From Nemertoderma westbladi (Eukaryota; Animalia; Xenacoelomorpha), in contig JAUCBJ010008942.1 of assembly GCA_032718475.1 (NCBI GenBank), forward strand, positions 1 to 64,000: a stretch of 64,000 nucleotides of DNA, written 5' to 3'. The position numbers were made by a program, and so were the translations under genes. Below the pieces are notes generated by a model, which was given only the letters and a program-made list of their open reading frames with translations, had not been told where the DNA came from and did no database searches. The stretch's first letter is position 1; the number at the start of each line of letters is the position of its first letter. Shown piece by piece: positions 3,881 to 64,000 of the stretch.

Positions 3881-4174
3881 GTCTGTCCAATCTGATCAGG
3901 TTTACACGCCTTCTGTTCAATACTGGCCTACAAACAAATAAAACTGACAGAAATAAGTAAGCTCCAAAAGAAACAAGGGGTGTACAGTCCCTAATCTCTT
4001 AAACAGCCTACCGGTATACAACAATCAAATCGAATAATACTAGTGTACTTATACGGCAGTACCGGTTCTAGCGGTTGGGCCTACTGACCTACAGGTGTAC
4101 TGTTCAGGTTTACCGGTTGACCGGTACTTTCAACTTTATTGCTTACTGCAATAAAGAAGCTATATATCCTTTAA

Positions 4175-30750: not shown

Positions 30751-31385
30751 TAATGAAACTGCGTATACACAGAGAAACTACAGAGAAGTTTCTCTTATAT
30801 TAATTGTTAATCTGATATTGTATTATGTTATTAAAATAATCAATCTTGTCAAGCATTAATCTTGTTTCACAAATTATGTTTCATGTATTATTTGAATGAA
30901 TGTTTTTTAGAAAGACTTTAGTGTGCCGTAAATTCAATTTGTACTTGCGACCGAAAACCCATCCTGTAATGACCTCAGGAACCTCAATTTGATAAATTAA
31001 TGGGAATATAGCTTCTATGCAACAACTGGCCAACACACAAGTATCACTTTGTTGCCCGCATAATATTGTTCCCCGAGAATGCCTCTGCCTCTCAGTTAAC
31101 TTACCACGAGCTGTCAATCAGGAATACCTCAGAGTTTATTTTCTCAAAGAATTAAAAGTGCCGCAAACTACCTCAAAGTGACATTTCTCAAAGAATTCAA
31201 AGAATTCAAAGTGCCTAAAAGCAGGAAATCACTTTGAGATTCCCAACTAAAAGTGTCTACAAGAATTCAAAGCGGCCGTTGGGAGTAATGACTTTTAGAC
31301 ACTTTTAGAAAAACTTTGAGAAAATCTCAAAGAACAGATGCACTTTGAGACCCCGACTGTATTTGTGTTGTAACGTGGTTAATAG

Positions 31386-39387: not shown

Positions 39388-39464
39388 CCGCTCCCAGAAA
39401 ATGGGATTCAAGTCTATAAATATACAAAATCACAGTTTCTAATATACGTAAATACTCTAAACAG

Positions 39465-40901: not shown

Positions 40902-42665
40902 CGGCGGTTCGATTTAACGACCATCGTCCTCCGTAATGGTTGGATCGGCTTCACCGCGTATCAAGCTATCCACAAATGCTTGCAAAGGTAGAGTATATCG
41001 CTCCCTGATACCAAGATCATCTTCTATCAACTCCGTCATATCTGCTATTTGGGTTTATTAATATTATAAGGAGTTTATGTTTAGGCGAGCGGGCGTCGCT
41101 GCCTACCTTTCTTTGCCCCCGGACAGTGGGATTCTCAGCGCCGATGTACCGTCGTCGCGGTGTTTACGCCAACCTGTAGCAACAGCACGACAACGATAAC
41201 CGGCACAAGTCACTCCACTGTCCGTCCCAAAGGCTTGGATCCACTTTAGGTTCTTTCTATAGGAGAGTTGGGTTACTTTCACAATTGCGACTAGCTACTG
41301 TAAACATACTTTAGCAGTAACATTCACCTATAAACGCATAAATTCCACACAACTGTCACCAATTGTACACATACAGGCCATTTGTCCGTTAGTCAGTGCC
41401 TTCCAGAATGTCATGTTATTACTGTGTATCCTTGGATACTAACAGTGTGCTATGTATTCTCTATGCTATGCAATGGGACAAGCTTTCTATTGTTCTTTTA
41501 ACTTGCTTCTAATTCTAGCGTGGGTGTTGCTATGGTGACATTATGGAAATCTAGCGGTAGAATTAGGATAATTCTCATGCATACAGATCTGGAATGCTAT
41601 TTAATAGTAATTCTTTAATTGTCAATATCCTCTCTATGTATGATTTTATTAATTTTTATCGGCTATTGACTATATGTTGGAGATTCTCGCACTCTAATAC
41701 GCTCAATAGGATGAATAATCTCCGCTCCCATGATCTATTAATTAATGGAATTTTGGGAATGTTATAAATTGCACAAAATGACAATTTATGAAATTCATTT
41801 AAGATATGAATTTAAATTTATTCCCGTGAATTTTATTATTTGATGGTAAAATTGACACAATTTATTCCAGAGCATGTCTGGGGACCTAGGATCCTTAATT
41901 CTATAAAATTATCTTTTAAGAGTATCGGTAAGTGCTGCGATATCTTAATTGACTAGAAATTTTAACGGATCTATATTTTACAGATTTTAATAAATATTAA
42001 ATTAATATTTAAGATGGGCACCGATTTATTCCAGAACTTGTCTGGGGACGTTAACCACTGATTCTAGAATTTGTCTTTCAAGTATATCGGTGGGTGCCGC
42101 GATATCTTAATCGACTAGAATTACAGATGGTCAAAAGGTTTAACAGATTTATTTGCATTTTACGCTACTGTTATAGGGACATCACACTACTATATGTATT
42201 ATTTAATATAAGGTAGAAGAGCAATATCGCACGAAGCAATGTCAGTGTGAAGAGGCAAGTCGTTTTCAAGGTCTACCCAGAGCTTGGTTTAGCCGAGACA
42301 CGAGGATCTGAACTTTGCATTCCTAATACTCTGCCTACCAATAATACTTGAATATAGTAGTGGCTTTATTGTACTTTAATAAGTACGGATATTTCATCTT
42401 ACTGTAGTCTCGTGTTTATAATATAATACGGACAGTAAGGAAAGAGAAAAAGAATTATTTCTCGCCGTCACACTAAATATATATTATATATGTAATTACG
42501 TAATAAACACTAATATATTGCACTAATCTACCAAATAATCTAAAATAACATTCTACTAAATAAAATTAAATAAAACGATTGTAATAAAGTACATAATAAC
42601 GTTCACATATAAAAATATAATAAAAATAGATAGAATAATATAGTCATGCACCCACTCCAGACGTA

Positions 42666-45338
42666 TCACGTTGGGGAGTCCCTAGATGTTTGAGGAATTA
42701 GGGAGGTGGTCGTGGGAAGAGTGTCTGGCCTTCCATAGTTTCCGGAGAGTTCTCTGTCTCTTTCCAGTAAACATAAACGACCAACTGGGCGGTTGAGTTG
42801 TTGCATCTCAAAGATTATGCCTGGCTTCTTGAAGTTACGCCGCATGACGACGAGTTCTACCGAGCGTACTAAACCATCATCCGAGATGTGAGTCTCGATG
42901 ATACGACCTGTCTGCCACCGTTTACGTGGAAGGTCTGAATCTACAATAAGCACCATATCTCCGGCGCTGACGTTTTCTTGCTGCGCAAACCACTTAGTTC
43001 GAAGTTGTAGCGTGGGCAGATAATGTTTCTCGAAATGGTCAGCGAAACGACGGGATAGCAACTGCATAAGTTGCCAAGTTCGACGGCAGTATTCGTCTCC
43101 GTCGGCAATCTCCGATCGTGGGAGCATGGCTACAGGTTTCTTCAGTAGGAAGTGCGCGGGTGTTAGCGCTTCCAGGGAATCGGGACTCGATGAGACTGGC
43201 ATAAGCGGTCTCTCGTTGAGATAGGCAGCTATTTCCTCCATTAACGTCCGCAAAAGTTCGTCGGTGAGATACGCGCGGCATGGCACTATAAAGTGAAATG
43301 CGGTCTTGACACTCCTAATTAATCTCTCCCAACTTCCTCCCCACCAAGGGGCGTCGGAGGCGTTGAAGGTCCAGCTAGACGCTGTTATCCTTAGCTGATC
43401 GTCCACCTGTCTTTGGTTCCAGTCCTTCACGTAAGCCTGGATTTCGTTGTTGGCACCAATGAAGTTCGTTCCCTTATCCGATCTCATGGTATTACTAGTC
43501 CCAAAGCGAGCGATCTGTCGGCGTAAACTTAATACGAAGCTGTTGGTAGATAGATCGTTCACCATATCGAGATGGATGGCTCTACAAGTCATGCATACGA
43601 AGATGACACACCATCTCTTGATTATAGTCCTAGCACGATATACTTCAATAGGGCCAAATAAATCTACACCAGTATTAGTAAAGGGTGGTTCATAGAAGCT
43701 TACTCGTTCCCTAGGTAATTCTGCCTCTCGCTGTGTTAAAGGCCTACTGAATGCTTTCCTACAGGGTATGCAGTTCCTAAGAACTTGGTTCAGAGCTCTA
43801 CGGGGTTTATCAAAATAATAGCGAGTTCGAATTTCGCTAAGAACTCGTTCTCTACCAGCATGATAAAGTTTACTGTGAACATCTACAATCATCTTGATTT
43901 GTACTTCAAGATTTCTAATGAGTATGGGGAATTTAGTGTCAAAGGATAATGGCGTATTGGTGAGCCTTCCTCCAACACGTATTAACCCATCTATCATTGT
44001 GCTAGAGAAGCGATCCCTTAAGCGCATCTGCGGATTCCTTAACAACAGGAAATACTTATCGGAATCCTCATAGCATTGCAGGAGTCTCAGTATCTGCTTA
44101 TTGGTTTCTTCATGCTCCTGGTAACTAATTTTCTCCTTTAGAAATCGGTCGGATGTCTTATATTTGGGTAAATTTTTAATAACATGAACTTGCGCAGATG
44201 TCAATGGAGCGGTATCACTAATGGTCTTTGTCCTGGAGTAGTGATGATGAAAACATCGCCTTAAATATGTGACGGCTTTACAGAGCCGATTCCAGGAACT
44301 GTAGTGATGCATTGCTCTCTGCAGCATGGGTGAGAATCCTTGCGAGACATCTGGTATTCCAGATTTCCAATCTCTATCTCTAATTTCCACAACAGACTTA
44401 TTTGTGGCGAGGGATTGTGGATCCGAAGCATCGTTTCCGGAAGTATGTAATACAGATAGATCGATAGTCGGTTTAAATAACTTCGATTTACTCGCCCGGG
44501 TTTTAGGTTTGACTTTCTCCGCTCCCTTGGCTTGTCTAATCTCCGCCGTAGTAAGGTGAGGAGGCCATTCATCCTCTTCCTTACTCAGGAAGTCGGGTCC
44601 ACCCAACCAGTCTGGAGTATCTATCAGTTCCTGTGGAGTTGCTCCCCTGGAGGCGATATCGGCTGGATTAATCGTACCAGGGCAATGTCTCCATTGATCT
44701 ATCTTTGTGCGACTAAGAATAATAGCTACCCTGTTAGTAACAAAAACGCTGAACTGACAGACTTCATTGGTTATATACTCCAACACGAGTAAAGCGTCGG
44801 TCCAATAAACAGTTTTCTCCAGTGGATAGTCGATTTGTTCTGTTACGTTCCGGCCGATGGCTGTAGCGTATAAAGCCGCCTTTAACTCCACTCGAGGAAC
44901 CTTTAACTTGTTGTTAATCAATGCCTTAGAGGTAACCAAGGCGACTTTGATTCCATCCGGAGTTTCGACTCGCAGATATGCTACTATACCTATTCCCATG
45001 TCGCTGGCGTCTCCAAACACATGGAGTTGATAGGAATACGTAGGGAGAACATGACCAAAATATGCACGGGAAATTACAAAGCTCTCGATGGCAGGTAGAG
45101 AATCTTCCCATTTCATCCATTTCTTTAACAGTTCTCCCTTAAGCGGATCGTCCCATGAGTGGTTTTCAAGCCACATTTGTTGTACTAAACTCCGAGCAAT
45201 CAATATAACTGGGCTAATAAATCCCAATGGGTCGAAATAAGTGCTCAGGATACTTAAACAAATCCGTTTGGTCCGAACTGGATTATCTCGCTGTTTTAGC
45301 TGAAAAAACAGGATATCTCTTTCGGTGTCCCACTTCAA
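42666..45338 (-). CDS. pol: BEL/Pao pol: RT C-terminus, RNase H (peptidase A17-type region) and integrase
   Basis: FDPLGF, LHVFGDAS, WTDA, NPADIASRG, HHCC (H..LYH...CIPC), GVDLFGP, SDKGTNF, WERLIRSVK. Confidence 0.93.
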   Translation of the reverse strand: MKWDTERDILFFQLKQRDNPVRTKRICLSILSTYFDPLGFISPVILIARSLVQQMWLENHSWDDPLKGELLKKWMKWEDSLPAIESFVISRAYFGHVLPTYSYQLHVFGDASDMGIGIVAYLRVETPDGIKVALVTSKALINNKLKVPRVELKAALYATAIGRNVTEQIDYPLEKTVYWTDALLVLEYITNEVCQFSVFVTNRVAIILSRTKIDQWRHCPGTINPADIASRGATPQELIDTPDWLGGPDFLSKEEDEWPPHLTTAEIRQAKGAEKVKPKTRASKSKLFKPTIDLSVLHTSGNDASDPQSLATNKSVVEIRDRDWKSGIPDVSQGFSPMLQRAMHHYSSWNRLCKAVTYLRRCFHHHYSRTKTISDTAPLTSAQVHVIKNLPKYKTSDRFLKEKISYQEHEETNKQILRLLQCYEDSDKYFLLLRNPQMRLRDRFSSTMIDGLIRVGGRLTNTPLSFDTKFPILIRNLEVQIKMIVDVHSKLYHAGRERVLSEIRTRYYFDKPRRALNQVLRNCIPCRKAFSRPLTQREAELPRERVSFYEPPFTNTGVDLFGPIEVYRARTIIKRWCVIFVCMTCRAIHLDMVNDLSTNSFVLSLRRQIARFGTSNTMRSDKGTNFIGANNEIQAYVKDWNQRQVDDQLRITASSWTFNASDAPWWGGSWERLIRSVKTAFHFIVPCRAYLTDELLRTLMEEIAAYLNERPLMPVSSSPDSLEALTPAHFLLKKPVAMLPRSEIADGDEYCRRTWQLMQLLSRRFADHFEKHYLPTLQLRTKWFAQQENVSAGDMVLIVDSDLPRKRWQTGRIIETHISDDGLVRSVELVVMRRNFKKPGIIFEMQQLNRPVGRLCLLERDRELSGNYGRPDTLPTTTSLIPQTSRDSPT

Positions 45339-45395
45339 GCCAAGCGTCTTGGTTTCTGGAAGATCGTCCTTTATTAAGTCTAGATCTTTCGTTCC

Positions 45396-46115
45396 TCAGT
45401 CTTCTACCGGTATCGCTTCCAGAAACTCACGGGAGTTGCTGGTGAATTTCGTCAGTCGAAATCCACCTCTTTTCAAACACTCTACCATTCCTTTCGCGAC
45501 ATCAATGGCTTCTTCTACTGATGGAAGGGATCTTAAATTATCGTCCATGTATATATTACGCTTGATGTTGTCTATCACCTCTTTTGAGAAGGCGTCTCGG
45601 TTGTCATTCGCAGTGGTCCGCACTTCCACTTTGGAAGGGCTTGATATGATCCCAAAAGCCTGGATGGTCATCCAGTACTCTACCGGTTTCTGGTTGAGAT
45701 CCCCTTCAGGCCACCACAGAAATCTCAGGCTGTCTCTATCTCTATCCAGCGCCTTGACTTGTAAGAACATTCCTTCTATATCGGAGGCGAACGCGATGGA
45801 ATATTGTCTTAATCTTAAAAGTATTCCCAACAAAGATTGGAGTAAGTTGGGTCCTGGTAACAACTCGGAATTGAGGGATTGGCCCATATATAGAGCGGAG
45901 CCATCAAATACGACTCGTACTTCATGGGGTTTACCGGGTTTGGGAACGTAATGATGTGTTAAGTAATACGTTCTCTCAGTCACTGGTGTTCCTTCCGGTA
46001 CTCGCTCCGCGTATCCCTTTGTAATAAATTTCTTCAACTGAGTTTGGTACATTTCTTTAGCTGAAGCATTAGCCGTAAGGCGTCGATGTAATTGAGCGAT
46101 TCTTTTCTCTGCCAA
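45396..46115 (-). CDS. pol: BEL/Pao reverse transcriptase core (frameshifted segment)
   Basis: RVVFDGS, SLNSELLPGP, SDIEGMFLQV, FG..SSP, YMDD. Confidence 0.9.
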   Translation of the reverse strand: MAEKRIAQLHRRLTANASAKEMYQTQLKKFITKGYAERVPEGTPVTERTYYLTHHYVPKPGKPHEVRVVFDGSALYMGQSLNSELLPGPNLLQSLLGILLRLRQYSIAFASDIEGMFLQVKALDRDRDSLRFLWWPEGDLNQKPVEYWMTIQAFGIISSPSKVEVRTTANDNRDAFSKEVIDNIKRNIYMDDNLRSLPSVEEAIDVAKGMVECLKRGGFRLTKFTSNSREFLEAIPVED

Positions 46116-47629
46116 GGATTTACAAATCTAGGTTCTCGTTTTCGAAATGGTAGGCCGATTTCATATCTACCTTGGTCCTTTAAAAAACGTGTAGTTGTTT
46201 CCTGGATTTGCTTGGCTCTTTCTTCTTCTATCGATAGGGCCTTATCGTATGAATTGGGCTCTACCAATTCTTGAGTAAAGAATCGTACGGCGAGTTCGTC
46301 CCGAGTTCTAGCGTTGTAGCGCTCTATCTCATCATTTAGTTCGTCATTGTAATCAATGGGTCCCGATGGGCGAATCAGTTGACATAGGTTCACCTGGTTT
46401 TTCCAAGTTTTGTTTTCTGTAAGTAGGTCGATTGTGTTCTCTTCATCGAAGAGTTGGTAGATGTTGTCATTATCTGAGGAGTATGGTGTTCCCTCAGTTA
46501 GTTCGTCCACCTCACTGCTCTCCACTTCCCAATCGTTTACTTGGTATATTCGTTCTTGTGGCATTCTCTCTTCGAGAGTTCTGCGGGAAGGGCCAGTAAA
46601 GTACCAACCTATTCTAGTTCTTACCGCATAGGTTTGCAGTGGCTGCGGTTGAGCAGGCCGTTTCTCCAATGTCTCGAGCGCCTCATGCGCGTTTTGGCCG
46701 ATGAGTATTTGCACTCCAGGATAATCTGTCTGGAATCGAGGTATCTTAAGCTGTTGGATGCTCTCATCCTCGTCCCAATTATAAAGGTCTGCTTGGGTAG
46801 TAGCGAAGTTCTTTATAGCCACCATTTTTACCGACCTTATACCTTGTGCTCCTAATTTATCCTGGGGGGTGGACAACACACCTACATAGTAATCTGCCGT
46901 TAGGGTAGATTTCCAAACCTGCATAATTCCTGACATATTCAATTTAGTCCGGAATTTGGGTTGTCCAGCAAAGATATCTTCGGCTAGTTCTTGATCGATG
47001 AATGTTCCTGTGCTGCCGGAGTCAAGGAGGGCGTTCACTATGTAACTTTTGTTAGGACCATGAACACATACCTGCACTACAGGAAATTCTCTGATTCCTA
47101 CGTTGGAAGTTGGAGCTTTCCAAGATGGTTGTCTGGCAAAAGTAGTTGGTGGGCGCTCATTGTCGGTGTCCTTTTCATAAGTAAGTGCTCGATACACCGC
47201 GGTATTGATTAGGTAACAGGATTCGTTGGCGTCGGAGAATTCGTCAGTATAGAATCCTTCCATCTCAGACTCTTGATCAGTGTCATTTACATCACTGAAT
47301 TGTACATGTAGTTCGGGCTCACTTACCTGACTCAGGTTGTCTCGTTCGAACTCACTGTGTAACAAGATGTGATGTTTCACACCACACTTTGCACACTTTA
47401 CGTCGGAGTAACAGGTTCGCCATTGGTGTCCTGATCTGAGGCAATTATAGCATAACCGCTTATCCCACATGACTTTATGTCTGTCTACCAGGGATTTCTT
47501 TAGGAATTCAGCACATGCACTCAAACGGTGGGGCCCGTCGCACAGCGCACAGTTTGGTTTGATGTTACTCACTTTACCTTGGGTAACGTTATGCACTCTC
47601 GTTCTTTCTTCGGGCTTTCTTCCGTGCAT
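46034..47629 (-). CDS. BEL/Pao gag zinc knuckles plus aspartic protease (segment)
   Basis: CALCDGPHRLSAC, CYNCLRSGHQWRTC, CAKCGVKHHILLH, ALLDSGSTGTFID. Confidence 0.9.
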   Translation of the reverse strand: MHGRKPEERTRVHNVTQGKVSNIKPNCALCDGPHRLSACAEFLKKSLVDRHKVMWDKRLCYNCLRSGHQWRTCYSDVKCAKCGVKHHILLHSEFERDNLSQVSEPELHVQFSDVNDTDQESEMEGFYTDEFSDANESCYLINTAVYRALTYEKDTDNERPPTTFARQPSWKAPTSNVGIREFPVVQVCVHGPNKSYIVNALLDSGSTGTFIDQELAEDIFAGQPKFRTKLNMSGIMQVWKSTLTADYYVGVLSTPQDKLGAQGIRSVKMVAIKNFATTQADLYNWDEDESIQQLKIPRFQTDYPGVQILIGQNAHEALETLEKRPAQPQPLQTYAVRTRIGWYFTGPSRRTLEERMPQERIYQVNDWEVESSEVDELTEGTPYSSDNDNIYQLFDEENTIDLLTENKTWKNQVNLCQLIRPSGPIDYNDELNDEIERYNARTRDELAVRFFTQELVEPNSYDKALSIEEERAKQIQETTTRFLKDQGRYEIGLPFRKREPRFVNPWQRKESLNYIDALRLMLQLKKCTKLS

Positions 47630-47700
47630 TCTGTTAGGAGACTGAGGAGGAGTCTTGGCAACCTGTTCTCTCCTATCGTTGGTTCGAGCCTTGTATTTAC

Positions 47701-50700
47701 TTACGCTTTTTGAGGTTTTGTTAACGTAGTAAAATCGGTCAGTGTCTTTCCCGCTGTCCTCTTCTTGAGAAGCTTGCTTTCGCCTTCGTCAGTGTAACAC
47801 ACTGGTGTTACTCTTCTCCTAGAAACGGGTTTCTCACTTACCTTATTTTCCGATGTTTTCTCTCTGGACTGCTTGATGAGTTGTAGTTTTACTTCACCAT
47901 CTAAGAAGGACATGAGATCAGCCATGGTAGGGCTTCGTCGTTGCTGCTCATTCATATACAACACTTTCTTGTCCCAGCGTGTACATACTCCACCCTTTGG
48001 TAAAGTAGAGACTACGGCTCCAATAACCATGGAACTCTGATATTCATGAGACTTACCTAACCAGTCCAATAGTCTACAGATCTCCTGAATCTCATCGGAA
48101 AACTCTATAATCCCGCTACTAAGGAAGTTTCGGGGGGCTACTAATTTTGCATACAAATACTTAGCTATGTTATCCTTGTTACCATACCTGGTGTTTAATG
48201 TATCCCAAACTTGTCTTAATCCATCTGGATGTCCAATAAACTTTAACGCCATTAACTTGGGAGGTCCTTCCAAGCACTTGATGAGGAATCTAAGTTTCTC
48301 TCCGTTAGATAGTACAGAGTTCTGTATGCATCTTTGTAATATTCATTGAAAGGTAACCATTTCATCTCATCTCCATTGAATTTGACGATCTCTCCCACTT
48401 TGACCGCTTGGCGGGCTTCTGTTCTAGCCATCTGACGCGTAAAGCTTTCTTGGGCCATCGTGTTATTTAATATCGAATTATCGGTATATGAATTTCTCGG
48501 ATTATTATCAGGTCTATAGGGAATATCATTAACAACAGGTTTATAATCACCCTTAATAGGGTTTGCTATAGGAGTTTCTACTTCACTAGCAGTATAGATG
48601 CGTGTAGGCTCCACACCTTGCGCATGTGATACTTCAGACCTAACAGGTTGACACAATGTTACTGGGGGTATTGGTATACCCTTTTGTATATTGACTAATT
48701 TGTCGCGTTCTAGCGCGATGCTTTGCTGCACTTCTTGCAATTCTAACCTACTTTCCCTTACTGTTCCCTTAAGTTGGTGGACAGTCTCCTGCATCTGTCC
48801 GAGCAGGAGATTCATCCCCCGCCGTCCCTCCTCTACCCACTCAACCGCCGAAGCGGGAGTCGCCAACATTGTAGCGGGCCGACGCAGGACGACGGGAGAC
48901 AAATCTTTGATTTCTCTCTCAGTGTCCAGGACAGGGATATTCGCATGGACTGTTCTACCGGGTACAGGCAGTGTGGTACTGTGTAGAGGGAATTTAGAGT
49001 TAAGCTCTGGAAGTACAGGGGTCTCTAGCACAGGAGTGGCTTTGGGAACGACAGGCCTAATTATTTCAGGCTCATCAACTATCATAGGGAGTCTTAATAA
49101 TTTGGTCTGTGGGTTCTGTACTACCTAAGTCTGTGCTAGCTAGTTGTCTTCTAACCGCTGGGGGCAAATCAGGCAATTTGTGACGGTGAGATGTTTTTCT
49201 ACGCCTGCTTAGACGAGATCTATTTCCTCCGCCTTCAGGATCAGTGGTCTCGCCTTCCTCCGATGATGTGTATCCTTGGCGTTTGGGAGTAGATCGACTC
49301 ATCATCTGCATTTGACTAGCAGTTAACTGTTTATTTATGCAGTCTTGCGTCTCTTGCAGATTTTCCAACTCCAGTTGGGTAGTCTCCTCAGACGCTCTTC
49401 GTTCTGCTTCTGCCACTGCCTTTGCCGCCTTTCTTTCCGCTTCTGCTTCTGCCATTGCCGCTGCTGCCTTTCTTTCCGCTGCCGCTTTTGCCGCTTCCGC
49501 TTCTGCCATTGCTGCTGCTACTGCTGCTGCCTTTCGGTCCTCTATCCGTTTTTTCTTTACTTGTTCTTCCTGGACTCTAGCGAGGCGGAGTTTTTCATCA
49601 AATTTAGCTTGGTTTGCAGCTAACCTTTCTGCATCGATTGAGTCCAACACAAGCTTGGCTCCTTCACTATTGGGGCGAAGTCCAGCCAGTCGTCTCCTCA
49701 ACTCTTCATCACCTAGGAAACGTTGATAGTCTGACAGATAGATGTCTATGGCGTCTCTCGTTCGCGGTCTCTTTGCGGTCACTTCGCTTTCCACTTGAGA
49801 AAAGGTGGCATCGGTTGATTCTTCATAGGTTGGTCTCTCAGCCAGCTGGGATTTCCACTGGGCCGTTTCTTGTACTTTGAGACCTACCCGCTGGAACCAA
49901 GTCTTGACAGCAACTTGCAGCGACGTGTCCTGTCTTCTTTTGGAAGTTTCCTCAAAGGCTGATAGGATTAGTCTAATGCGTAGGGTTCTTTCGCGTACTT
50001 GATATAGCAGCTCTTTCTGCTCTTGAGGTCCTTGGGGTTGTTGAAACAGTTGTTCTTCTAATCGCTCTAAGGAGCCGAAGAATCCCTGCACATATCCTGC
50101 TGCCGACCTCTTCCAAACAGCTGGATCCATCGTATCTTTAGTCACTCCCATCCTGTGTATGTCTTCCCAAGTAGCTTCGGACAAATCTAACGGGAGTCCG
50201 GGTCCGGGAAAGTTCCATTGTGACTCGACAATAGACATCAATTCTTCCCTGGCGTATCCCGCATAACTATCTTGGGTCGCTCGCTTACTTCTCGCCCAAT
50301 CGCCTTGGTGTTCCACCACCGCAATCAATATAGTAGTTAGTACTGCGGCAGGAAGGGTGAGAAGGGGATCCGAATAGGCTGTAGCCGCCATCTTCACTCC
50401 GCGTTCGGGGGTCAGCTCTACAGTATCCGAACTACTGGAGCTATCGGGTCGCTGGGAACGAGTTTCTTGACTAGGATGTTGCTGCTGTTGGACAGCTGCC
50501 TCTTGGTTCCGTTTGACCTGGGCCCGAGTGCCGATGATAGACCTACGGTGTTGGATTAGCCTAGGGTCTGATACTACTACTGGAGGGATGACCTTTCTTT
50601 CAGTAGGAGGTGAGCTGAACCCCTTTCTTAATCGCTCCACACTCCTGTCTGTGTCACAGATGGTTGTATCGATTAGACTGTCTGACAGGTTTTGCTTTGT

Positions 50701-50709
50701 GTCAGACAT
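47701..50709 (-). CDS. gag: BEL/Pao gag with long coiled-coil N-terminal extension (three frameshifted segments)
   Basis: ORFs 49075-50709, 48252-49085 and 47701-48273. KFNGDEMKWLPF and LNTRYG are BEL capsid-type motifs. Confidence 0.85.
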
Positions 50710-52494
50710 ACTTAGCTATACAGTTGAATGCTTGCTGCTATAGTTACAGTTAAAGCAAGTCTAGTAATTCAGTATGACCGTTGGCCTAGTACCGGTAATT
50801 TATTACAGTATATTAGAATACCGGTATACACTTATAATATATAGAAGTATTGTAAACTAGGTTTGTCACAGAGTACCGGTATATAATTTTTGCACAAATA
50901 TATATAAATATATAATAGGCCTATCGTGAATACCGGTATACAGCTGACACTTATAGTATATAAGTATAATTCTGGACTAGAATAAATTACAGAATACCGG
51001 TATAATTTTAGCCTAAATTTATAGAAATAAAGATAATAGGCCTATCGTAAATACCGGTATATCAATTATTTAAATAATTGAATTTCTGAATTTTAAAGGT
51101 TACTTAGTTACTTTAACTTACTTTATTACCGTTATTTAAGCAGTAGTCCAACTGATATTGAGACCTAGTTGTTGTATGGCAGGCCTACTATTTATAAATC
51201 GTTTGAGTTGATTTATAATATATATATACCCGTTTAAAATGGGTTTTGTCAATATTTGAAATAAATGTTATTATTTCCGGGGGGAGTCACTACACAGAAG
51301 CTGTGCGCTCTCAGTGAAGTGCTACTTAATAGACACTAAAACAGATAATTCTACTTTACCTAAGTTACTTAATACTTCAAATTACGTACGATACGGGTGA
51401 GATTAATTCTCTAATTAAAACACAACAAAATATTACGTACGAAATTTTAGGGTAATTTTACAGGGAAACTACAAACCAGTCTAACAAAGGGTTAGAACTT
51501 CTGGTTATTACAACGGACAGGATACTACGGTATTTGAGAATAATAAAGCAGTAGTCAATATACTGCGTTGTCCAGATAGGAAAAATACCACCGTCTGACG
51601 ACCTATAGCCGTATCGCTATAGGTACTACGTTATGTATCACGGAGTGTCCCTACCTGGAAGTTAATTACCGCAGACTACCAGATCCAACGTGCCTATTAA
51701 CCACTTTACAACACAATACACTGCCTACACACTAATTACTTTCGGAAAGCACTGTACACCAAACCCTAAATTAGGTACAAGTACTTATTAAAACAGATAA
51801 CTAGCAGTTAAATATACTTGAACAGTTAAAAGATTCCAAAATGGTTAGTTAGTATGCGTTCTAACACGGTAGTACGACTTATTCTTTAGGAGGGGATTGA
51901 CCTTACAGCTCTGGCTGCCCCAACTTACTAACTGGAACTTTATCAGACAAACTCTACACACGCAGCAATCTCTTCAGACCTAATAATAGCTAGACAACAA
52001 TCCAGCCTACAAAAATATCTGAGTAATAACTATTACGGTACCTGAACAGACCACACAAACAAACACAGACTAAAACGCTGGCAGACTACTATCAAGCCTA
52101 AATTAACTACAGTATGTGCAGATTCCAAAATGGTTAGTTAGTATGCGTTCTAACACGGTAGTACGACTTATTCTTTAAGAGGGGATTGACCTTACAGCTC
52201 TGGCTGCCCCAACTTACTAACTGGCACTTTATCGGACAAACTCCACACACGCCGCAATCTCTCCAGACCCAACAACAGTCAGACAACAGTCCAGCCTACA
52301 ATTATCTGAACAATCTGAGCAGACTTACACGTCTTCAGCTCAATATTAACTTACATGTAAATAAAACCGACAGAAATAAGTAAAATCTCAATAAAAACCA
52401 GGGCTGCAGTCCCTGATTAAATACTAAGACCTACCGGTATACAATAATCAAAATCGAATAATACTAATGTACTTATACTGGAAGTACCGGTTAG

Positions 52495-52686
52495 GACAGT
52501 TGGGCCTACAGACCTACAGCAGTACCGGTTCAGGCAGTTAGGCCTACGGACCTACAGCAGTACCGGTTCTGGCAGTTGGGCCTACGGATCTACAGCAGTA
52601 CCGGTTCTGGCAGTTGGGCCTACGGACCTACAGCAGTACCGGTTCTGGCAGTTGGGCCTACGGACCTACAGCAGTACCGGTTCAGG
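52495..52686. repeat. Five tandem 38-bp repeats in the A leader
   Basis: GGCAGTTGGGCCTACGGACCTACAGCAGTACCGGTTCT units. Single copy in B. Confidence 0.85.
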
Positions 52687-52737
52687 TTTACCGGTCGACC
52701 GGTACTTTCAACTTTATTGCTTACTGCAATAAAGACA

Positions 52738-52748
52738 ATAACTGTTAT
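52738..52748 (-). promoter_or_regulatory. Putative self-priming primer-binding site of A
   Basis: Abuts the 5' LTR and is the exact reverse complement of LTR 53493-53503. No TGG. Confidence 0.65.
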
Positions 52749-53929
52749 TGTACGCGCTTTTGAAGACCTTTAGCAGTTTAACCTGCCAAAATTTATATGT
52801 CTTTTGGTTTATAAATAGACTTTAGTAAATGACAAATATTTAATACCAATAAACACAACATTAGCCGAAGCCAGCCTAGTGCGCGTCCATTCACCCGCTG
52901 GATATACCCGGGAGACTGGATTCGGAGGGCTTAGATTGTTATTGCAGTGTAAGCTTACTGTATTATTCGATTGATCGTTAATAAATAATTTCTGACCAAT
53001 ATTATTCACTTTCGGGAAATATTAACAGTTCCTTTAGGACGTGGCGCTCTATCTAGGTAAACAGAGATATGACTTATGCTAAACACAACGGTAAGTCGGT
53101 AAGGCTTATGATTCACGTATGAGGCGCATTCTTTAGGAAATGCTTAGTTATCAGCCACAATCATGCACACTACCGGTACCACACAATACTGCACACTAAT
53201 CTGCCGACCGTCAATGAATTTTATCATATATAAAGAGAACAGCAATTGACTCATGTAGTGCCTATCAAATAGCATTAAACTCACTACAAACCACGATAAT
53301 ATAAGTCGCAATCGCTATATGTAACCTGTCTCTCTAACCTGTAGTGTATCAAGAAAATTGGGAAATTTGGGTTATTTATCGATGTTCTCCAAGTAATAAT
53401 ATTCAACCAAACAACAGTAAAAACCATTAAGACGGTAGGTTAAGATATGATATGACAATGTACTGATAATGTAACAATGATATGATGTGCCGATAACAGT
53501 TATACGCTCTATAATCTAAGCCTACTAATGTTTCTTCTAAAGTCTGAAACGAATTGACTCCAGAGCCGGTGTTCTTGGCCTAGATAGAAACAACAAAACA
53601 GTATCAAGAAAAACAGTAAGACTGAACACTCCTAGCACGATCTGTAGAATATCTCCACATCGACAATAAAAATCGCCCTGATTGGCTGTTAAGCTAAACA
53701 AAGAACCATGTGTCCAACGGCCGTTTCCATGCCAGCAACCAGCTGTTAGATGTCGTAATCTGAATCATCAAGGCTACACTGTGCTAGAGGATTTGACGCA
53801 TTGCGGGTTTTGTGCCTTGCCATGTCCGCCAAAGCACACATATAGAAGAATGACTTTTATGTCCGTTAAAACACCTACAACGGTACTTTGCGGGCAAGGG
53901 GACTGATTATATCCGCAAAAGCTTTTACA
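52749..53929 (-). repeat. 5' LTR of A
   Basis: TG...CA termini, followed by TSD GTAAA. Confidence 0.95.
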
Positions 53930-54334
53930 GTAAAGACGAGGTCATACCAGATCTACTTCTCTGGCAACCAACTCATGGAAAGCGTAGTCGTGGACGACCT
54001 GCCATAACATATATAGATCAACTTGAAAGGGATACTGAACTTGGGAGAAACGAAATTGCGACAACTATGGAGAATCGGGAAGCCTGGAAGGATCTCATTT
54101 CCACTGTCCGAGTTCGCTCGACCTAGTAGTAGTAGTAGTAGTAGTTACTGATCCTAGTCTGTAATAATACTGATATATACTCTAGGTGTATACCGGTATT
54201 CTAATATTAAGATATATACTACATTACATTGAGTAGTGATATAGGTAACTACTAGGCTGACAGTTGATACTGATTTCCCCTAGACTTGCTTTAACTGTTA
54301 TTATAGTAGTAGGCATTCAACTGTAAAATAAATT

Positions 54335-57300
54335 ATGTCTGACACAAAACAAACACTGTCAGATAGTCTCTTAGAAAGAACGATCTGTGAATCAGATCAA
54401 AGTATAGAACATCTCAGACCGAAGTCTAAGTCCCCTCCTACCTTAAGAAAGGTTATCCCTACTGTAGTAGTATCAGACCCTAGGCTAGTAAAGCATCATA
54501 GGTTTATTATAGGCACTAGGGCTCAAGTTAAGCGAGACCAGGAGATGGCTGCCAAACAACAACAGCACCCGAACCGAGAACTTATTTCTCAACTGCGTAG
54601 TAACTCTAGTTCCGACACCGAAGTGTTAACGCCCGAGATCGGAACAAGGAGGGCAGAAGCGGTTTATCCAGACCCACTTGTAATTCTTCCTGGAGCAGTG
54701 CTCACTAGAGTACTTATAGCTGTAGACGAACATCAAGCGGATTGGATGAGAAATAAGAGATCGACCAGGGACAGTTATGCAGGATACCCGATGGAAGAAC
54801 TAAGGTCTATTGTAGAGACACAATGGAACTTCCCCGGACCCGGGCTCCCGTTTAACTTATCGGAAGCTGCCTGGGAAGACTTATACCAAATGGGGGTAGT
54901 GAGGGACACCCAAGATCCCGCTGTATGGAAGAGGTCAGCAGCAGGATATGTCCATGGATTCTTCAATTCCTTGGAAAGAATAGAAATACAATTATTTCAA
55001 CAACCACAAGGACCTCAAGAGCAGGGAGAGCTGCTTTACCAAGTGAGAGAACGTATTTTGAGGATCAGGTTAATCCTTTCAGCCTTTGAAGAGGCCTCTA
55101 AGAGAAGTCAAGACACGTCGTTGCAGGTGGCTGTGAAGACTTGGTTCCAGAGAGTGAATGTTAAAGTCCAGGGAACAACACAATGGAGGGTTCAGCTTAC
55201 TGAACGAGTAACCCACGGAGAATCAACAGATACAACCTTTTCTCATATGGAAGGCGAGGCGGTATCCGAAAAACCTCAGGAGAAGGATGCTATTGACATC
55301 TATCTGTCGGATTATCAACGATTTATAGGTGACAAAGAGCTAAGGAGACGGCTAGCTGGACTTCACCCCAATAGTGAAAGAGCCAAATTTATTTTGGACT
55401 CTTTAGATGCAGAGATATTAGCCGCGGAGCAGGCTAAATTTGATGAAAGCATTCTCATCGCAATGGACAGAGAAGAACAACTAAAGAAAAGGCAAATAGA
55501 AGACCGAAAGGTAGCAGCAGCAGCGGCAGCAGCAGAGGTTGAAAGAAAAGAGGCAGCGGCAGCTGCGGAAGCTGAAAGAGAGGCAGCAGAAGCTGAAAGA
55601 AAAGAGGCAGCGGCAGCGGCGGAAGTTAAAAGAAAGGCGGCAGAAGCTGAAAGAAAAGCAGCAGCAGCGGCAGTGGCAGAAGCAGAACGGAGGGCATCTG
55701 AAGCGACAGTCCAACTAGAGTTGGAGAACCTCCAGGCGAAACAAGATTACTTAAACAAACAAAGGGCAGCTACTCAGATGCAACTACTGAGTCGATCTAC
55801 TCCCAGAAGTCAAGGATTTACCTCCTCGGATGAAGGTGATACAACTGATACCGAGGGTAAAGGTAATAAATCTCATTAAAGTGGACGTAGAAGAGCGCCC
55901 CACCGGCATAAGTTGCCTAACTTACCGCCTGCGGTGAGAAGGGAGCTAGCTAGTGTAGACTTAAGTAATCAAGAACCAACAGCCCAAATTATTAGAGTAG
56001 AAAAACGCCCTACTATAGTAGATGAGCCAGAAATAATTAGGCCTGTTAGCGAAGCCACTCCCTTAATAGAGACACCTTTGCTCCAAGAACCTAACTCTAA
56101 ATTCCCTTTGCACAGTACCAAACTATATGTGCCCAGTAGACAACTGCCGGAATCCCAAACAGTCCTGGATGCCGAGCAAGACATTATAAACAAATTGTCT
56201 CCCGTCGTCCCGATGCGCCATCCAGCTACTACGTTGGCGACTCCCACCTCCGCGGTTGAGTGGATAGACGAGGGACGACGGGGGATGGAGCAGTTGCTCG
56301 GACAGCTCAAGGATAATAAAATTGAGTCTTCCAAACAAGTCCAAGAATTGGAATTGGAGAAGCAAAAGTATTGCTTTAGAGCGCGATAAATTAGTAAATA
56401 TACAAATGGGTATACCACCACCCCCTGTAACAATGTGTCAGCCTGTTAGGTCTGAAGTATTTCATGCGCAAGGTGTGGAGCCTACACGCATCTATACTGC
56501 TAGCGAAGTAGAAACTCCGATAGTAAAACCTATTAAGGGTATTTATAAACCTGTTGATAATGATATCCCATACAGATCTGATAATAATCCGAGAAATTTA
56601 TATACCGATAATTCGATATTAAATAATACGATGGCTCAAGAAAGTTTTACATGTCAAATGGCTAGAACTGAAGCCCGTCAAGCGTTAAAAGTGGGAGAGG
56701 TCGTCAAGTTCAATGGAGATGAGATGAACTGGTTACCTTTAAATGAATATTACAAAGATAACATACAGAACTCCTTACTATCCAACGGAGAGAAACTACG
56801 ATTCCTCATCGAGTGCTTGGAAGGACCTCCCAAGTTAATGGCGTTAAAGTTTATTGGACATCCGGACGGATTGAGACAAGTTTGGGATACATTAAACATC
56901 AGGTATGGTAACAGGACTAACATAGCTAGGTATCTGTATGCGAAATTAGTAGCGCCCCAAAAGTTTCTTAGCAGCGGGATTATAGAGTTTTCCGACGAGA
57001 TTCAGGAGATCTGTAGACAGCTAGACTGGTTAGGTAAGTCTCTGGAATACCAGAGTTCTATGGTTGTAGGAGCCGTAGCATCAACTTTGCCAAATGGTGT
57101 GTAGGTACTCGCTGGGACAAAAGGGTTCTCTATCTGATGGACCAACAACATAGAGACCCTACCATGGCTGATCTCATGTCGTTCTTAAATGGAGAGGTAA
57201 GATTACAGCTCCTAAAACAGTCTAGAGAGAAGACACCAGAAAGTAAGGTAAGTGAAAAACCCGTTACTAGGAGAAAGGTAACACCAGTGTGTTATACAGA

Positions 57301-60300
57301 TGATTGCAAAAGCCAAACGTCATATGACGAGAACAGCGGCAAGGACACCGAAAGATCTTATTATGTCAACAAAGTTAGGAAAGATGTAAGTAAATCTAAG
57401 TCTCGAACCAGTGACAGGAGAGAACAGGTAACAACTCCCCCTACGTCTCCTAAGAGAATTCATGGAAGGTAGCCCGAAGAAAGAGCTAGCGTACACAACA
57501 CGACGCAGGTTAAGGTAAGTAACATCAAACCTAAGTGTGTATTGTGCGACGGGCCACATCGCTTGAGTGGGTGTGATGAATTCTTAAAGAAAACATTGAA
57601 GGATAGACGTGATGTCATGTGGGATAAACGGTTGTGCTATATTTTCCTCAGGCGAGGACATCAACGAAGAACCTGTTACTCAGAGGCGAGGTGTGCTAAG
57701 TGCGGCGCGAAACATGATATCTTGCTGCACACCGAGTTTGATAGGACCCGTACGAGTCAGGTAAGTGAGCCCGAACTACATGTCCAATTCAGTGATGTGA
57801 ACGACACTGACCACAGTTCGGAGATGGAAGGATTCTACACTGATGAATTTTCAGACGAAAATGAATCCTGTTATATGATCAACACAACTGTGTATCGAGC
57901 ACTTACATATGAGACCGAAACGGAGGGAGAAGAACCCCGACTGTCTATTCCAGATCGACAGCTCTCTGGTAAAGCGCCAACATCATCTGTCGGTATCCGA
58001 GAGTTTCCCGTAGTGCAACTGTTCCACTATATCCCTAACCAGATGAATAATTACATATCTGATATGTGGAAAAGGAGAATTTGCGCTAATTACCAGGATG
58101 ACGTGGATGATATTAGATCGCCACCTCTACAACCAATAAATATGGAGTGCTGGAGAAGCGTTGAATCGTTCATACTTGGTGTCCTCTTGGGTCAACCAAA
58201 TACTGCATATATGAAACATTTATATGGTGATATAGACAACAATATGTGCTTATGTGGGGAACCTGAAACTGCAACACACTTTATATTTGAATGTAACTTA
58301 CCACATAAGATCACATATATCCAGTCACTCAAAAACAAACTATGGAAAAAGGGTCTATCCGAGACATTAAGTAGCTTACAGTTCTGCCGAGATACAGAGG
58401 TTATTTCTGCACTGATAGCGGTGTGGACGAGAACGTGACGATGATTATTGAAACAAAACAAATATCAAACGAGGAGGCGCTAAATTCACAAACATGGTCG
58501 ACTAAATGTTAACGAATAACTGAACTGAATAACTTTTAATTCATTTAAAACACATTTTATCATTCTAATTAATAAATACATACTGTATTTGATTTTAACT
58601 AACTATTATTGTGCCTCCATTTGATCTGCATATATGGATATTTTATTAAAGAATTATATATATAACTGAGGGTCCATGGGATAGGGAAGTGAACGCCCTC
58701 CTTGACTCCGGCAGTACAGGCACTTTTATAGACAAAGACCTAGCCGAAGATATCTTTGCTGGTCAACCTATCTTTGCTGGAATTATGCAGGTTTGGAAAT
58801 CCACAGTATCAACAGATTACTATATGGGTTCGTTGTCCACTCCCCAAGATGAACTCGGAGAAAATAGTGTAAGGTCAGTCAAGATGGTGCCGATAAAGAA
58901 CTTTGCAACTAGCCAAGTGGAGCCTTACAACTGGGATGAAGATCATTTTACCCAGCAATAATGTATCCAGGGGTACAGATTTTGCTCGGCCAAAACGCAC
59001 ACGAGGCGCTTGAGACATTAGAAAAACGGCCTGCTCGACCGCGACCACTCCAGACATACGCGGGAAGAACAAGAGTAGGTTGGTACTTCACTGGACCTTC
59101 CCATAGGACTTTACAAGAAAGACTCCCGAGTGAACAAGTCCACCAGGTAAATAAGTGGGAGGAAGATATAAGTGAAGAAGAAATTCCAGCTGAGGAAACT
59201 CCATACTCCTCAGATAACGACGACATATGTAATTTATATGACGAGGAAAATACCATTGAAATCCTCACTGAGAACCAAACTTGGTTAAACCAGGTCAACT
59301 TATGTAACCTTATCAGTCAACATAGCGAACAATTGACGTATGATGATGAATTAAATGAAGCTGTAGAGCGGTATAATAGTAAAATATGCGATGAACACGC
59401 CATATGATTCTTTACTCAAGAAGCGGTAGAGCCTAATTCCTACGACAAAGCATTATCGGTCGAGGAAGGGAGAGCAAAGCAGATGCAGGAAACGACCACA
59501 CGTTATCTGAAAGATGAAGGTTGTTATGAGATTGCTCTGCCGTTCCGATGGAGAGAACCCAGCTTTGTGAATAACCGACCTTTAGCGGAAAAAAGAATCG
59601 CTCAACTTCTTCGGCGTTTGACGGCTAACGATCGAGCCAAAGAAATGTATAAAACCCAATTGAAGAAGTTTATAGACAAAGGATTCGCGGAGCGAGTTCC
59701 GGAAGAAACACCCATAACGGAGAGAACGTATTATTTGACACATCATTACGTTCCCAAGCCCGGTAAACCAAATGAAGTCCGGATAGTGTTTCATGGCTCC
59801 GCCCTTTACATGGGACGATCCCTGAATTCCGAACTGTTGCCGGGACCCAACTTACTCCAATCTTTGTTGGGAATGTTACTACGACTGAGGCAATATTCGA
59901 TCGATTCGGACATCAAAGGCATGTTTCTACAAGTTAAAGTGTTAGCTAGGGATCGAGACAGCCTACGATTTTTGTGGTGGCCTGAAGGAGACCTCAACCG
60001 AAAACCGGTAGAGTATTGGATGACAATCCAGGCTTTCGGGGTCATATCGAGCCCCTCCAACGCTTGTTCAGTAGTGCGTACCACTGCCGATGACAACAGA
60101 GACGCCTTCTCTAAAGCGGTTATTGACAACATCAAACGGGATATTTACATGGACGACAATTTAAAGTCCCTCCCATCGGTGGAAGAAGCAATCGATGTTG
60201 CCAAGTGAATGGTAGAGTGCTTACAACGAGGTGGATTTCGCCTAACCAAATTCACTAGTAACTCCTGTGAGTTCCTGGAATGATCCCAGTAGAAGACCGA

Positions 60301-62956
60301 GGTGTAAAAGACCTGGACCTCATTAAGGACGATCTTCCAGAAACCAAAACCCTTGGATTAAAATGGGACACGGAGAGAGATATTATATTCTTTCAATTGA
60401 AGCAACGAAACAATCCAGTTAGAACAAAACGGATTTGTCTAAGTATCCTGAGCACCTATTTCGATCCGTTGGGATTCACTAGCCCAGTCATACTAGTTGC
60501 TTGGAGCTTATTGCAACAAATGTGGCTCGAAAACCACTTGTGGGATGATCCACTCAAGGGAGAACTGCTAAAGAAGTGGATGAAATGGGAAAATTCTTTA
60601 CCATCTATCGAGAACTTTAAGATTTCCCGCTCCTATTTCGGTCACATTCTCCCAACGTATTCCTATCAACTCCATGTTTTTGGAGACGCCAGCGATATAG
60701 GAATAGGTATAGTAGCCTACCTGAGGGTTGAAACTCCCGATGGAATTAAGGTTTCATTAGTCTCCTCTAAAGCCCTAATAAACAACAAACTACAAGTTCC
60801 CAGAGCGGAGTTAAAGGCGGCTCTATACGATACAGCCATCGGCCGGAATGTAACGGAACAGATCGACTATCCACTAGAGAAAACTGTCTATTGGACCGAT
60901 GCTTTACTCGTTCTGGAGTATATAACTAATGAAGTCTGTCAGTTCAGCATCTCTGTTACCAAAAGAGTAGCCATTATACTCAGTCTCTCTAATATAGATC
61001 AATGGAGACATTGCCCTGGGACGATTAATCCAGCTGACATCGCTTCCAGAGGTACAACTCCTCAAGAATTGATAGATACTCCAGACTGGTTAGGTGGACC
61101 CGACTTCCTGATTAAAGAAGAGGAGGAATGGCCCCCTCATCTCACTGCAGCAGAGATCAGACAAGCCAAGGGAGTGGAGAAAGTCGAACCGAAAACCCGT
61201 CGAGTAAATCAAAGTTATTTAAGCCAGTGATAGATCTGTCTGTGCTACATGCCTCCGGTGACGACGCTGTGGATCTAAACTCACCCAAGGATGTTACCCG
61301 AAATACAAATAAATCCGTTATAGAAATCACGAAAAGAGACTGGAAATCTGGAACACCAGATGTCTCGCAAGGACTCTCTCCTCTCCTACAAAGAGCGATA
61401 GATCATTATAGCTCCTGGAATCGGCTTTGCAAGGCCATTGTGTATCTGAAAAGATGTTTCCATCATCACTATTCCAGGATGAAGATCGCTAATGATGCCG
61501 CTCCAGTAGTAGCTGAAAAGGTCCATGCTACTAAAGACCTTCCCACTTATAGAGTGTCTGATAGGTTTCTGACTGAGAAGATCAGTTACCAAGAACATGA
61601 TGATACTAACAAGCAGATACTGAGACTCCTGCAATGTTACGAAGATTCCGATAAGTATTTCCTGTTGTTGAGAAATCCACAGATGCGCTTAAGGGATCGT
61701 TTCTCTAGCACAATGATAGATGGGTTAATACGTGTTGGAGGGAGATTAACTAATGCTCCATTGTCCTTTGACACTAAGTTTCCCATACTCATTAGAAATC
61801 TTGAAATACAAATCAAGATGATTGTAAATGTTCACAGTAAGCTTTACCATGCTGGTAGAGAACGAGTTCTTAGCAAAATTCGAACTCGCTATTATTTCCA
61901 TAAGCCCCTTGAGCTCTAAATCAAGTTCTTAGGAACTGTATACCCTGTAGGAAAGCATTTAGTAGGCCTTTAACACAGCAAGAGGCAGAATTACCTAGGG
62001 AACGAGTAAGCTGTTATGACCCACCCTTTACTAATACTGGTGTGAATTTATTTGGCCCTATTGAAGTATATCATGCTAGGACTATAGTCAAGCGATGGTG
62101 CGTCATCTTTGTCTGTATGACTTGTAGAGCGATCCATCTAGATATGGTGAATGATCTATCTACCAACAGCTTCATACTGAGCTTACACTGACAAATCGCT
62201 CGTTTTGGGACTAGCAACACTATGAAATCTGACAAAGGAACTAATTTCATTTGTGCCAATAACGAGATCAAAGCTTACGTAAAGGATTGGAACCAAAGAC
62301 AGGTGGACGATCAGCTAAGAGTAACATCATCTAGCTGGACCTTCAACGCCGCCGACGCCCCTTGGTGGGGAGGAAGTTGGGAGAGACTCATACAAAGCGT
62401 GAAGACCGCATTTCACTTCATAGTGCCGTGCTGCAGGTATTTCACCGACGAACTTTTGCGGACGTTAATGGAAGAAATCGCCGCCTATCTCAACGAGAGA
62501 CCGCTTATGCCAGTGTCATCTAGTCCCGACTCCCTAGAAGCGCTAACACCCGTGCATTTCCTACTAAAGAAACCTGTAGCCATGCTCCCGCAATCGGAAA
62601 TAACAGACGGAGACGAATACTGCCGACAAACTTGGCAACTTATGCAGTAATTATCCCGTCGTTTCGCTGACCAATTCGAAAAACATTATCTTCCTATGCT
62701 ACAACTTCGAACAAAATGGTTTGTGCAGCAAGAAAACGTCAGCGCCGGAGACATGGTCCTTATCGTGGAATCAGATCTTCCACATAAGAGGTGGCAGACA
62801 GGTCGCATCATCGAGACTCATATATCCGATGATGGTTTAGTGCGATCAGTAGAACTCGTCGTCATGCAACGTAACTTTAAGAAACCTGGAATTGTGTTCG
62901 AAACGCAACAACTTAATCGCCCAGTTGGTCGTTTATGTTTACTGGAAAGAGACTGA
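54335..62956 (+). pseudogene. gag-pol of BEL copy C, many stops and frameshifts
   Basis: Series of ORFs colinear with the A proteins (zinc knuckles, LLDSGS, YMDD, FGDAS, SDKGTNF, WERLI). Confidence 0.92.
58022..58663 (+). mobile_element. 5'-truncated non-LTR retrotransposon 3' end inserted in the C protease region
   Basis: TSD AACTG, CLCGEPETATHFIFEC C-terminal zinc motif typical of LINE ORF2, AT-rich 3' UTR and (TA)n tail. The host frame rejoins (FPVVQL|RVHG). Confidence 0.75.
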
Positions 62957-64000
62957 GAGTTGTCCGGAAACTATGGAAGGCGAGAGACTCTTCCCACGAC
63001 CACCTCCCTAATCCAACAAACATCTAGGGACTCCGCAATGTAACAGTGTTTGGAGTGGGTGTGTGACTACATTAATTTATTTTTTATTTTTATATTTATG
63101 TATATATTATTATGTAATCTTATTATTATAATCGTTTTCTTTAATTTTATTTAGTAGAATAATAGTTTAATGATTATTCAGTAGATTAGTACAATATATT
63201 CGTGTTTTATTACTTAATTACTTAGTATAATATATTTCGTTTAACGGCGAGAAATAATTCATTTTCTCTTTCCTTACTGTCCGTATCATACTAGAAATAC
63301 TTGACTACAGTAAGATGAAATGTCAGTACTTATTAAAGTACAATATACCGCCCCTACTATAATTAAGTATTATTGGTAAGTAGAGTATTAGGAATGCAAA
63401 GTTCAGATCCTCATGTCTCGGCTAAACCAAGCTCTGGGTAGACCTTGGAAACGACTTGCCTCTTCTCACTGACATTGCTTCTTGCAATATTGCTCTCATA
63501 CCGTATCTTAAATAATACGTATAGTAGAATGATGTCCATTTAACAGTAGCGATTGAAGCGCAAAATATTTGTTAAACAAATCTGTTAATCAATCTTCAAA
63601 TAAATCTGTTAAACCCTTTGGCAATCTGAAATTCTAGTCGATTAAGATATCGCGGCACCCACCGATATACTTGAAAGACGAAATTCTAGAATCAGTGGTT
63701 AACGTCCCCAGACATGTTCTGGAATAAATCGGTGCCCATCCTAAATATTAAATATTTAATAAATATTTACAACGTTTGATATAACAAATGTTAAAATAGA
63801 GAAAAGTATAAATTAAATCTGTTAAAATTTTAGATCCTCTAAAATTCTAGTCGATTGAGATATTGTAGTACTTACCGATACTCTTAAAAGACAAATTTCT
63901 GGAATTAAGGATCCTAGTTCCCAGACATGTTCTAGAATAAAATTGTGTCTATTTTAATATCAAATAATAAAATTCATGGGAATAAATTTTAAATTCATAT

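Follow-up and report, generated by a model that had tools for sequence, protein, structure and literature searches.

The 64,000-nt window analysed here, the whole stretch of Nemertoderma westbladi DNA under study, carries three members of one LTR retrotransposon family, designated elements A, B, and C. Element A is complete and occupies 15.7 kb of the minus strand (38207–53929), bounded by a 5-bp target duplication (TTTAC). Its 5′ LTR (53929–52749, TG…CA) and 3′ LTR (39387–38207) are each 1181 bp long and 99.2% identical, with 9 differences over 1181 bp. A leader of 2.0 kb (50710–52748) separates the 5′ LTR from the first gag ATG (50709), and the gag-pol region (42666–50715), broken into several reading-frame pieces by stops and frame changes, encodes DUF1759, three Cys/His knuckles, a protease DSG motif, an RT YMDD motif, Peptidase_A17/RNase H, an integrase, and DUF5641. 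A polypurine tract, GGGAGCGG (39388–39395), abuts the 3′ LTR, and between pol and this LTR lies an extra reading frame (39465–40499); like the other features of A, both are read on the minus strand. The extra frame has a basic tail and two motifs resembling Cys/His knuckles; it returned no Pfam match, and its Atlas matches were all below 0.9.

Element B, also on the minus strand, is partial, extending past the left end of the window, and is represented by a 5′ LTR of 1200 bp (5374–4175). Element C lies on the plus strand, with a 5′ LTR of 1134 bp (24975–26108), a middle piece of leader collinear with that of A (34152–34847), and the end of the leader followed by gag-pol (54166–64000), which runs past the window end. 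The three copies stand at the positions given in an earlier, sequence-only reading of this DNA, with the correction that C is the 5′ part of an element whose coding region is found at 54166–64000. At the DNA level C and A are 75–81% identical, and their integrase proteins 90% identical. The leader of C hosts a LINE, and element A is nested inside that LINE, so that A, B, and C represent three separate insertions. The LINE (region 34848–54150) encodes an endonuclease and RT at 35513–38221; its tail consists of TAG repeats, and it has what looks like an 11-bp target duplication. In the sequencing runs the BEL/Pao family is abundant, 12,271 contigs of run X1 aligning to 1651 bases, a figure that is not a copy number. 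Elsewhere in the window, a cadherin-like frame (23522–24310, plus strand) overlaps at its start a repeat common to 18665–19219 (94% identical); it may be part of a gene that a mobile element has picked up, and a search for a longer relative found none. Also seen were long palindromes and a direct duplication of 1.07 kb, its copies nearly identical and flanked by 230-bp repeats (27150–27603, 20542–21084, and 28400–30751).

The BEL/Pao assignment made in the sequence-only reading was borne out by protein domains and their order. Pfam returned Peptidase_A17 (E = 1.6e−36), DUF5641, DUF1759, and Integrase_H2C2, and the Pol order, read from motifs and collinear tblastn matches, is protease, RT, RNase H, and integrase. 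All 120 protein matches listed have PF05380 or BEL-type integrase domains, and the best relatives among these 120 are 33–34% identical across the full query. A Pfam search for a chromodomain gave no match. The family is of BEL/Pao descent, standing outside the Tf1/sushi group and resembling it only in the way it probably works. BEL/Pao elements are metazoan, with the named clades BEL, Tas, Pao, Dan, Sinbad, Suzu, and Flow, and the ICTV description of Belpaoviridae gives a genome of 4.2–10 kb, LTRs of 0.2–1.2 kb, a purine tract of ~10 nt, a target duplication, and tRNA-primed replication, poorly understood, from an 18-nt primer-binding site (PBS) for tRNA-Arg or tRNA-Gly (PMC8742986). The window family agrees with this description (Belpaoviridae, Semotivirus) in its Pfam domains, Pol order, LTRs of up to 1.2 kb, short purine tract, and target duplication; it differs in the 15.7-kb length of A, the 2-kb leader, and the extra 3′ frame, and also in that a tRNA-type PBS is missing, no TGG occurring within 86 nt past the LTR end in any of the three copies. 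Because the tRNA PBS of the ICTV description is absent, we count the family as a variant of the BEL/Pao lineage and not as a typical member. An integrase tree of 62 sequences comprised 45 of the 120 listed proteins (named ones or top-30 matches with long alignments), 15 of 16 relative loci returned by a scan of prokaryote genome bins, and two copies from the window; the references included no named BEL/Pao clade, and the window family fell on a long branch with weak support.

Downstream of the 5′ LTR, TGG is absent for at least 300 nt in A and first occurs at +209 in B and at +87 in C. The bases abutting the LTR are, in every copy, the exact reverse complement of a segment of the same LTR, here called the partner, the longest match being 11 nt in A, 13 nt in B, and 11 nt in C. 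In element A the PBS (52738–52748, minus strand) follows directly on the terminal CA of the LTR and pairs with an 11-nt partner at LTR position 427 (53493–53503, minus strand), the predicted self-primer; a second copy of this partner lies in the 3′ LTR (38951–38961). The corresponding PBS and partner occupy 4162–4174 and 4896–4908 (11-nt core 4896–4906) on the minus strand in B, and 26109–26119 and 25320–25330 (11 nt) on the plus strand in C. All six sequences were found where the sequence-only reading had placed them, and its observations that TGG is lacking, that the abutting bases complement the LTR, and that the partner keeps a homologous position were reproduced: the distance between partner and LTR end is 755, 734, and 789 nt in A, B, and C, respectively, and an unguided MAFFT alignment put the three partners in columns 518–528 and the three PBS in columns 1346–1356. 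The partner begins with A, preceded by a pyrimidine, in each copy.

Across the three copies from which the pairing evidence is drawn, 5 of the 11 pair positions vary, and all 33 cells are Watson–Crick pairs. The PBS of one copy matches the LTR of another over 5–6 nt only (6/6 comparisons), and the only perfect partner of the A PBS is A's own LTR. Dinucleotide-shuffled LTRs contained the 11-mer in 13, 3, and 9 of 5000 cases for A, B, and C, and an 11-nt match arose at 0, 1, and 0 of 266 other leader offsets. The pairing is a real feature: the complementarity is exact, copy-specific, and well past chance. That it arose by accident, or from a single template switch that placed a copy of an LTR segment beside the LTR, is highly improbable. 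The 11-mers are indeed A/T-rich, and that of A is nearly palindromic, but each match alone has p ~0.001–0.003, and ~1e−5 at the aligned position, while the product of a single ancestral switch would decay, yet five positions have changed on both sides. The sequence-only reading had called this compensatory change; the covariation stands, and its origin by paired point mutation is improbable, as priming would itself be expected to transfer the primer sequence to the PBS. A 17-nt palindrome about a central base (52735–52751) is made up in A of the LTR end, the PBS, and the three bases that follow; absent from B and C, it could pair with itself in competition with the primer.

The pair next to the helix on the LTR side is C–A, and hence broken, in all three copies, so the PBS–partner helix stops exactly at the LTR border. 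This bears on the possibility that the pairing is structural, serving circularisation, dimerisation, or a translation/packaging switch, with priming left to a host RNA, for example a fragment from within a tRNA. The surrounding region is rich in conserved structure, the leader past the PBS has two alternative folds, and half-tRNA primers are described for copia elements (PMC6317226). A purely structural role nevertheless seems quite unlikely to us: it gives no account of the helix ending at the border, three different PBS sequences would need three host primers, each coincidentally matching its own LTR, and none of the 33 PBS–partner cells is a G–U pair, whereas neighbouring structural helices do contain G–U. 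ARAGORN identified no tRNA gene in the 64-kb window. Two other sources of a primer were considered and rejected. A splice-built primer is unneeded, the partner being contiguous, and B retains the hairpin close to the LTR end but has lost the AG at that place; for a poly(A)-site primer, AATAAA is absent near the partner and the PBS has no T run.

At −7.9 to −10.3 kcal/mol the primer:PBS duplex is itself weak, and it has to bridge ~750 nt. Nested folding, a method that cannot model a pseudoknot, placed the helix in none of the three minimum-energy structures and gave pair probabilities of 0.04–0.47 at 37 °C. In Tf1, two further duplexes are needed, involving the PBS-adjacent sequence and the LTR behind the primer, and the three together form a 'pretzel' (10.1101/2022.12.06.519325). 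The window family has a candidate for each. Duplex b, obtained by consensus folding, pairs the leader just past the PBS with LTR sequence ~200 nt short of the LTR end (13, 12, and 12 pairs in A, B, and C); in A its predicted LTR arm is 52939–52954, and the leader segment 52712–52734 may pair with that arm (through 52732–52719) or form a local hairpin. Duplex c links the sequence that precedes the PBS by 3 nt with a stretch ~135 nt short of the LTR end (6, 6, and 5 pairs), with predicted arms in A at 52881–52886 (5′) and 52752–52757 (3′), all on the minus strand. Duplex c shows both-side changes at two positions, and its own-copy energy is the best in all three copies. In all three copies the arms run primer, b, c, c′, PBS, b′, which agrees with the Tf1 pretzel; duplex b crosses the primer helix, as in the pretzel, and duplex c also crosses a conserved stem. 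A conserved hairpin near the LTR end (52769–52790 in A, minus strand) retains seven pairs in all three copies.

Tested singly against shuffled LTRs, neither flanking duplex was significant, being equalled on the leader side in 65, 127, and 102 and on the LTR-end side in 129, 46, and 143 of 500 shuffles. The best duplex found differed from duplex b in B and C and from duplex c in C, and a test of duplex b for copy specificity showed none. Conserved in position and singly non-significant, the two duplexes would together give a Tf1-like three-duplex pretzel. In run X3, the leader arm of duplex b is one base longer in one contig, and the LTR arm has a matching extra base in a second contig, unlinked to the first. 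A stem near 52870–52925 shows both-side changes at three pairs. In the middle LTR region, consensus folding detected no net covariation (term +4.8), and a search of the LTR against Rfam returned only a chance-level 6S match (E = 1.5), with no known ribozyme or IRES. LTR identity between copies is 40–55% upstream of the partner versus 70–80% over the 3′ 620 nt (52749–53400 in A), a split that fits a promoter followed by constrained RNA. Beyond U3, conservation within the LTR is lowest directly behind the partner (43–50%).

A TATA-like motif, TTATAGA (53508–53514, minus strand), lies 10 nt upstream of the partner in A, with TATAAA at −12 in B and TATAAG at −11 in C, whereas at −25 to −32 from the partner no such motif was found in the three copies. 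The sequence-only reading had reported TTATA followed by 6–8 nt; the motif does precede the partner, and the gap measured from the 11-mer is 6, 8, and 7 nt in A, B, and C. A CA follows the motif by about 28–31 nt in all three copies, downstream of the partner, and a CCAAT box is found at −182 in A (53681–53685, minus strand), −170 in B, and −174 in C. If TTATA is read as a TATA box, the RNA would start 6–10 nt downstream of the partner's 3′ end, leaving the partner outside the RNA 5′ end. Self-priming stands as the best explanation, with the motif at 10–12 nt, taken as a TATA box, predicting a start past the partner, the case that the sequence-only reading had itself counted against it. Five of the 15 contig joints listed (of 22) leave the reference at 53491–53492, just behind the partner, although short-sided joints of this kind are unreliable.

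These motifs leave room for self-priming by something other than the RNA's first 11 bases. The RNA might start further upstream, giving the primer an unpaired 5′ tail; in a second form, transcription would begin at the TATA-like start just past the partner, and the partner copy in the 3′ LTR, at the end of U3, would be cut and would prime on a second packaged RNA. The position of the TATA-like motif and of the CA beyond the partner speaks for such a scheme, as does the presence of the same partner in the 3′ LTR of A; usual promoter spacing, moreover, puts a CCAAT box nearer the start than 170–182 nt. We still judge it unlikely. A longer 5′ RNA offers no natural stop at 11, where the matches end in A and C (13 in B), cutting the 3′ copy would be expected to deprive that molecule of the R segment on which strand transfer depends, and the canonical TATAAA is present in B only. 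Furthermore, Tf2 of S. pombe has both kinds of start (PMC5341516): RNA from the downstream start is not copyable, and RNA from the upstream start includes the primer. A downstream start in the present family is therefore compatible with priming by the first 11 bases and would not by itself refute self-priming.

Taken together, we consider it probable, by analogy with Tf1, that these BEL/Pao elements prime reverse transcription with an 11-nt RNA segment of their own LTR, and very probable that they self-prime in some form. The primer 3′ end sets the right end of the LTR, so the primer must pair where this helix ends. Element A, moreover, has transposed recently (9/1181 LTR differences, target duplication) and has no TGG, pointing to a primer other than a tRNA 3′ end, and the match length of 11 in two of three copies equals that of the Tf1 primer. 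In Tf1, the primer consists of the RNA's first 11 bases and is released by an RNase H cut between bases 11 and 12 (PMC7175516). On the same pattern, the RNA of the window family would begin at the partner, which would fold back ~750 nt onto the PBS and be held there by the two flanking duplexes; the element's RNase H would then cut after base 11, in each case before C, and the new 3′-OH would prime minus strong-stop DNA of about 720–780 nt. Later plus-strand synthesis would presumably copy the primer to its 5′ end, rewriting the PBS from the primer, and such rewriting would keep the pair matched, free of G–U, and limited to 11 nt. The Tf1 primer, to go by the title of a paper on that element, is reportedly not removed. 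This model predicts RNA starts at 53503 in A, 25320 in C, and 4906–4908 in B, and strong-stop DNA ending at base 12.

The scan of prokaryote genome bins had returned 16 BEL/Pao loci, which are probably host DNA, and both LTR ends could be located in three of them. One of these, L003 (6091–13085), has identical 320-bp LTRs and no TGG, and an 11-nt complement of its own LTR begins 4 nt past the LTR; 5 of 5000 shuffles did as well over eight offsets. An A/T-rich motif lies 20–29 nt upstream of its partner, and in the integrase tree it groups apart from the window family as a distant relative. The second, L009, has TGG after its LTR, and the third, L006, has neither TGG nor a clear self-complement. 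The remaining 13 loci lack one or both LTR ends; 10 of them were scanned for CA-adjacent complements, and none could be assigned to an LTR end. As to their settings, L009 (6671–12650), complete with its two LTRs, its TGG primer site, and a target duplication of 5 bp, lies within a 1.44-Mb record titled as a Wolbachia chromosome; this BEL/Pao element is either host DNA within the assembly or an insertion. L006 (6044–12949) is a BEL/Pao element with 705-bp repeats that are 99% identical and whose ends are not TG…CA, in a 1.42-Mb bacterial metagenome-bin contig. Searches of metagenome contigs by protein or LTR motif, and of viral contigs, found no relative.

Self-priming has been described for Tf1/sushi elements and predicted for the TAR, Houba, and Osr-1 copia elements (PMC6317226, PMC4600332). 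Like Tf1 and Tf2 (S. pombe), Tj1, Tosmo, and the Tf1/sushi group generally, the window family has no tRNA site and an LTR-adjacent PBS that complements an LTR segment; with Tf1 it shares the 11-nt length and candidate flanking duplexes in pretzel order. Unlike the Tf1/sushi elements, which are Ty3/gypsy chromoviruses, it has BEL/Pao proteins, no chromodomain match, a primer–PBS span of ~750 nt, and no TATA at normal spacing upstream of the primer, and it is known here from sequence alone. The plant copia elements TAR, Houba, and Osr-1 offer a parallel (PMC6317226) as a prediction made likewise outside the Tf1/sushi group and on the same kind of evidence, though they belong to another superfamily and another host kingdom. 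For GalEa, a fungal copia element, and the biv-TRIM elements, the accessible parts of PMC5445492 and PMC6934838 report that a PBS is absent and show no mechanism. The window family resembles both in that it lacks a tRNA PBS and has a conserved hairpin directly past the LTR; for GalEa those same parts give no complementary LTR segment, whereas here the complement is exact and covarying. A literature search, mostly of sources other than subscription papers, Repbase Reports, GyDB, and supplements, found no account of BEL/Pao self-priming, and a prior mention may exist. Within the searchable text of the BEL/Pao papers PMC3118150, PMC554778, and PMC2774666, a word search found no treatment of the primer site, and the accessible portions of PMC3601003, PMC3286476, and PMC5443660 added nothing further on BEL/Pao self-priming.

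In a more far-reaching version, a deep BEL/Pao lineage would have independently evolved the full Tf1 solution, comprising an 11-nt self-primer released by RNase H and a pseudoknot of three duplexes, over a 750-nt structured RNA and, in addition, a switch between two starts only a few bases apart, in which a TATA-driven start just behind the primer would give an RNA used only for translation and a start at the primer would give a copyable RNA. This extension is conceivable, though we hold it doubtful. LTR finders that require a tRNA PBS would miss or misannotate elements of this kind. If the family does prime itself, tRNA-independent priming would extend to a third LTR superfamily, after Ty3/gypsy, where it has been shown, and Ty1/copia, where it is predicted, and would represent convergence on an equal primer length and perhaps on an equal RNA fold.
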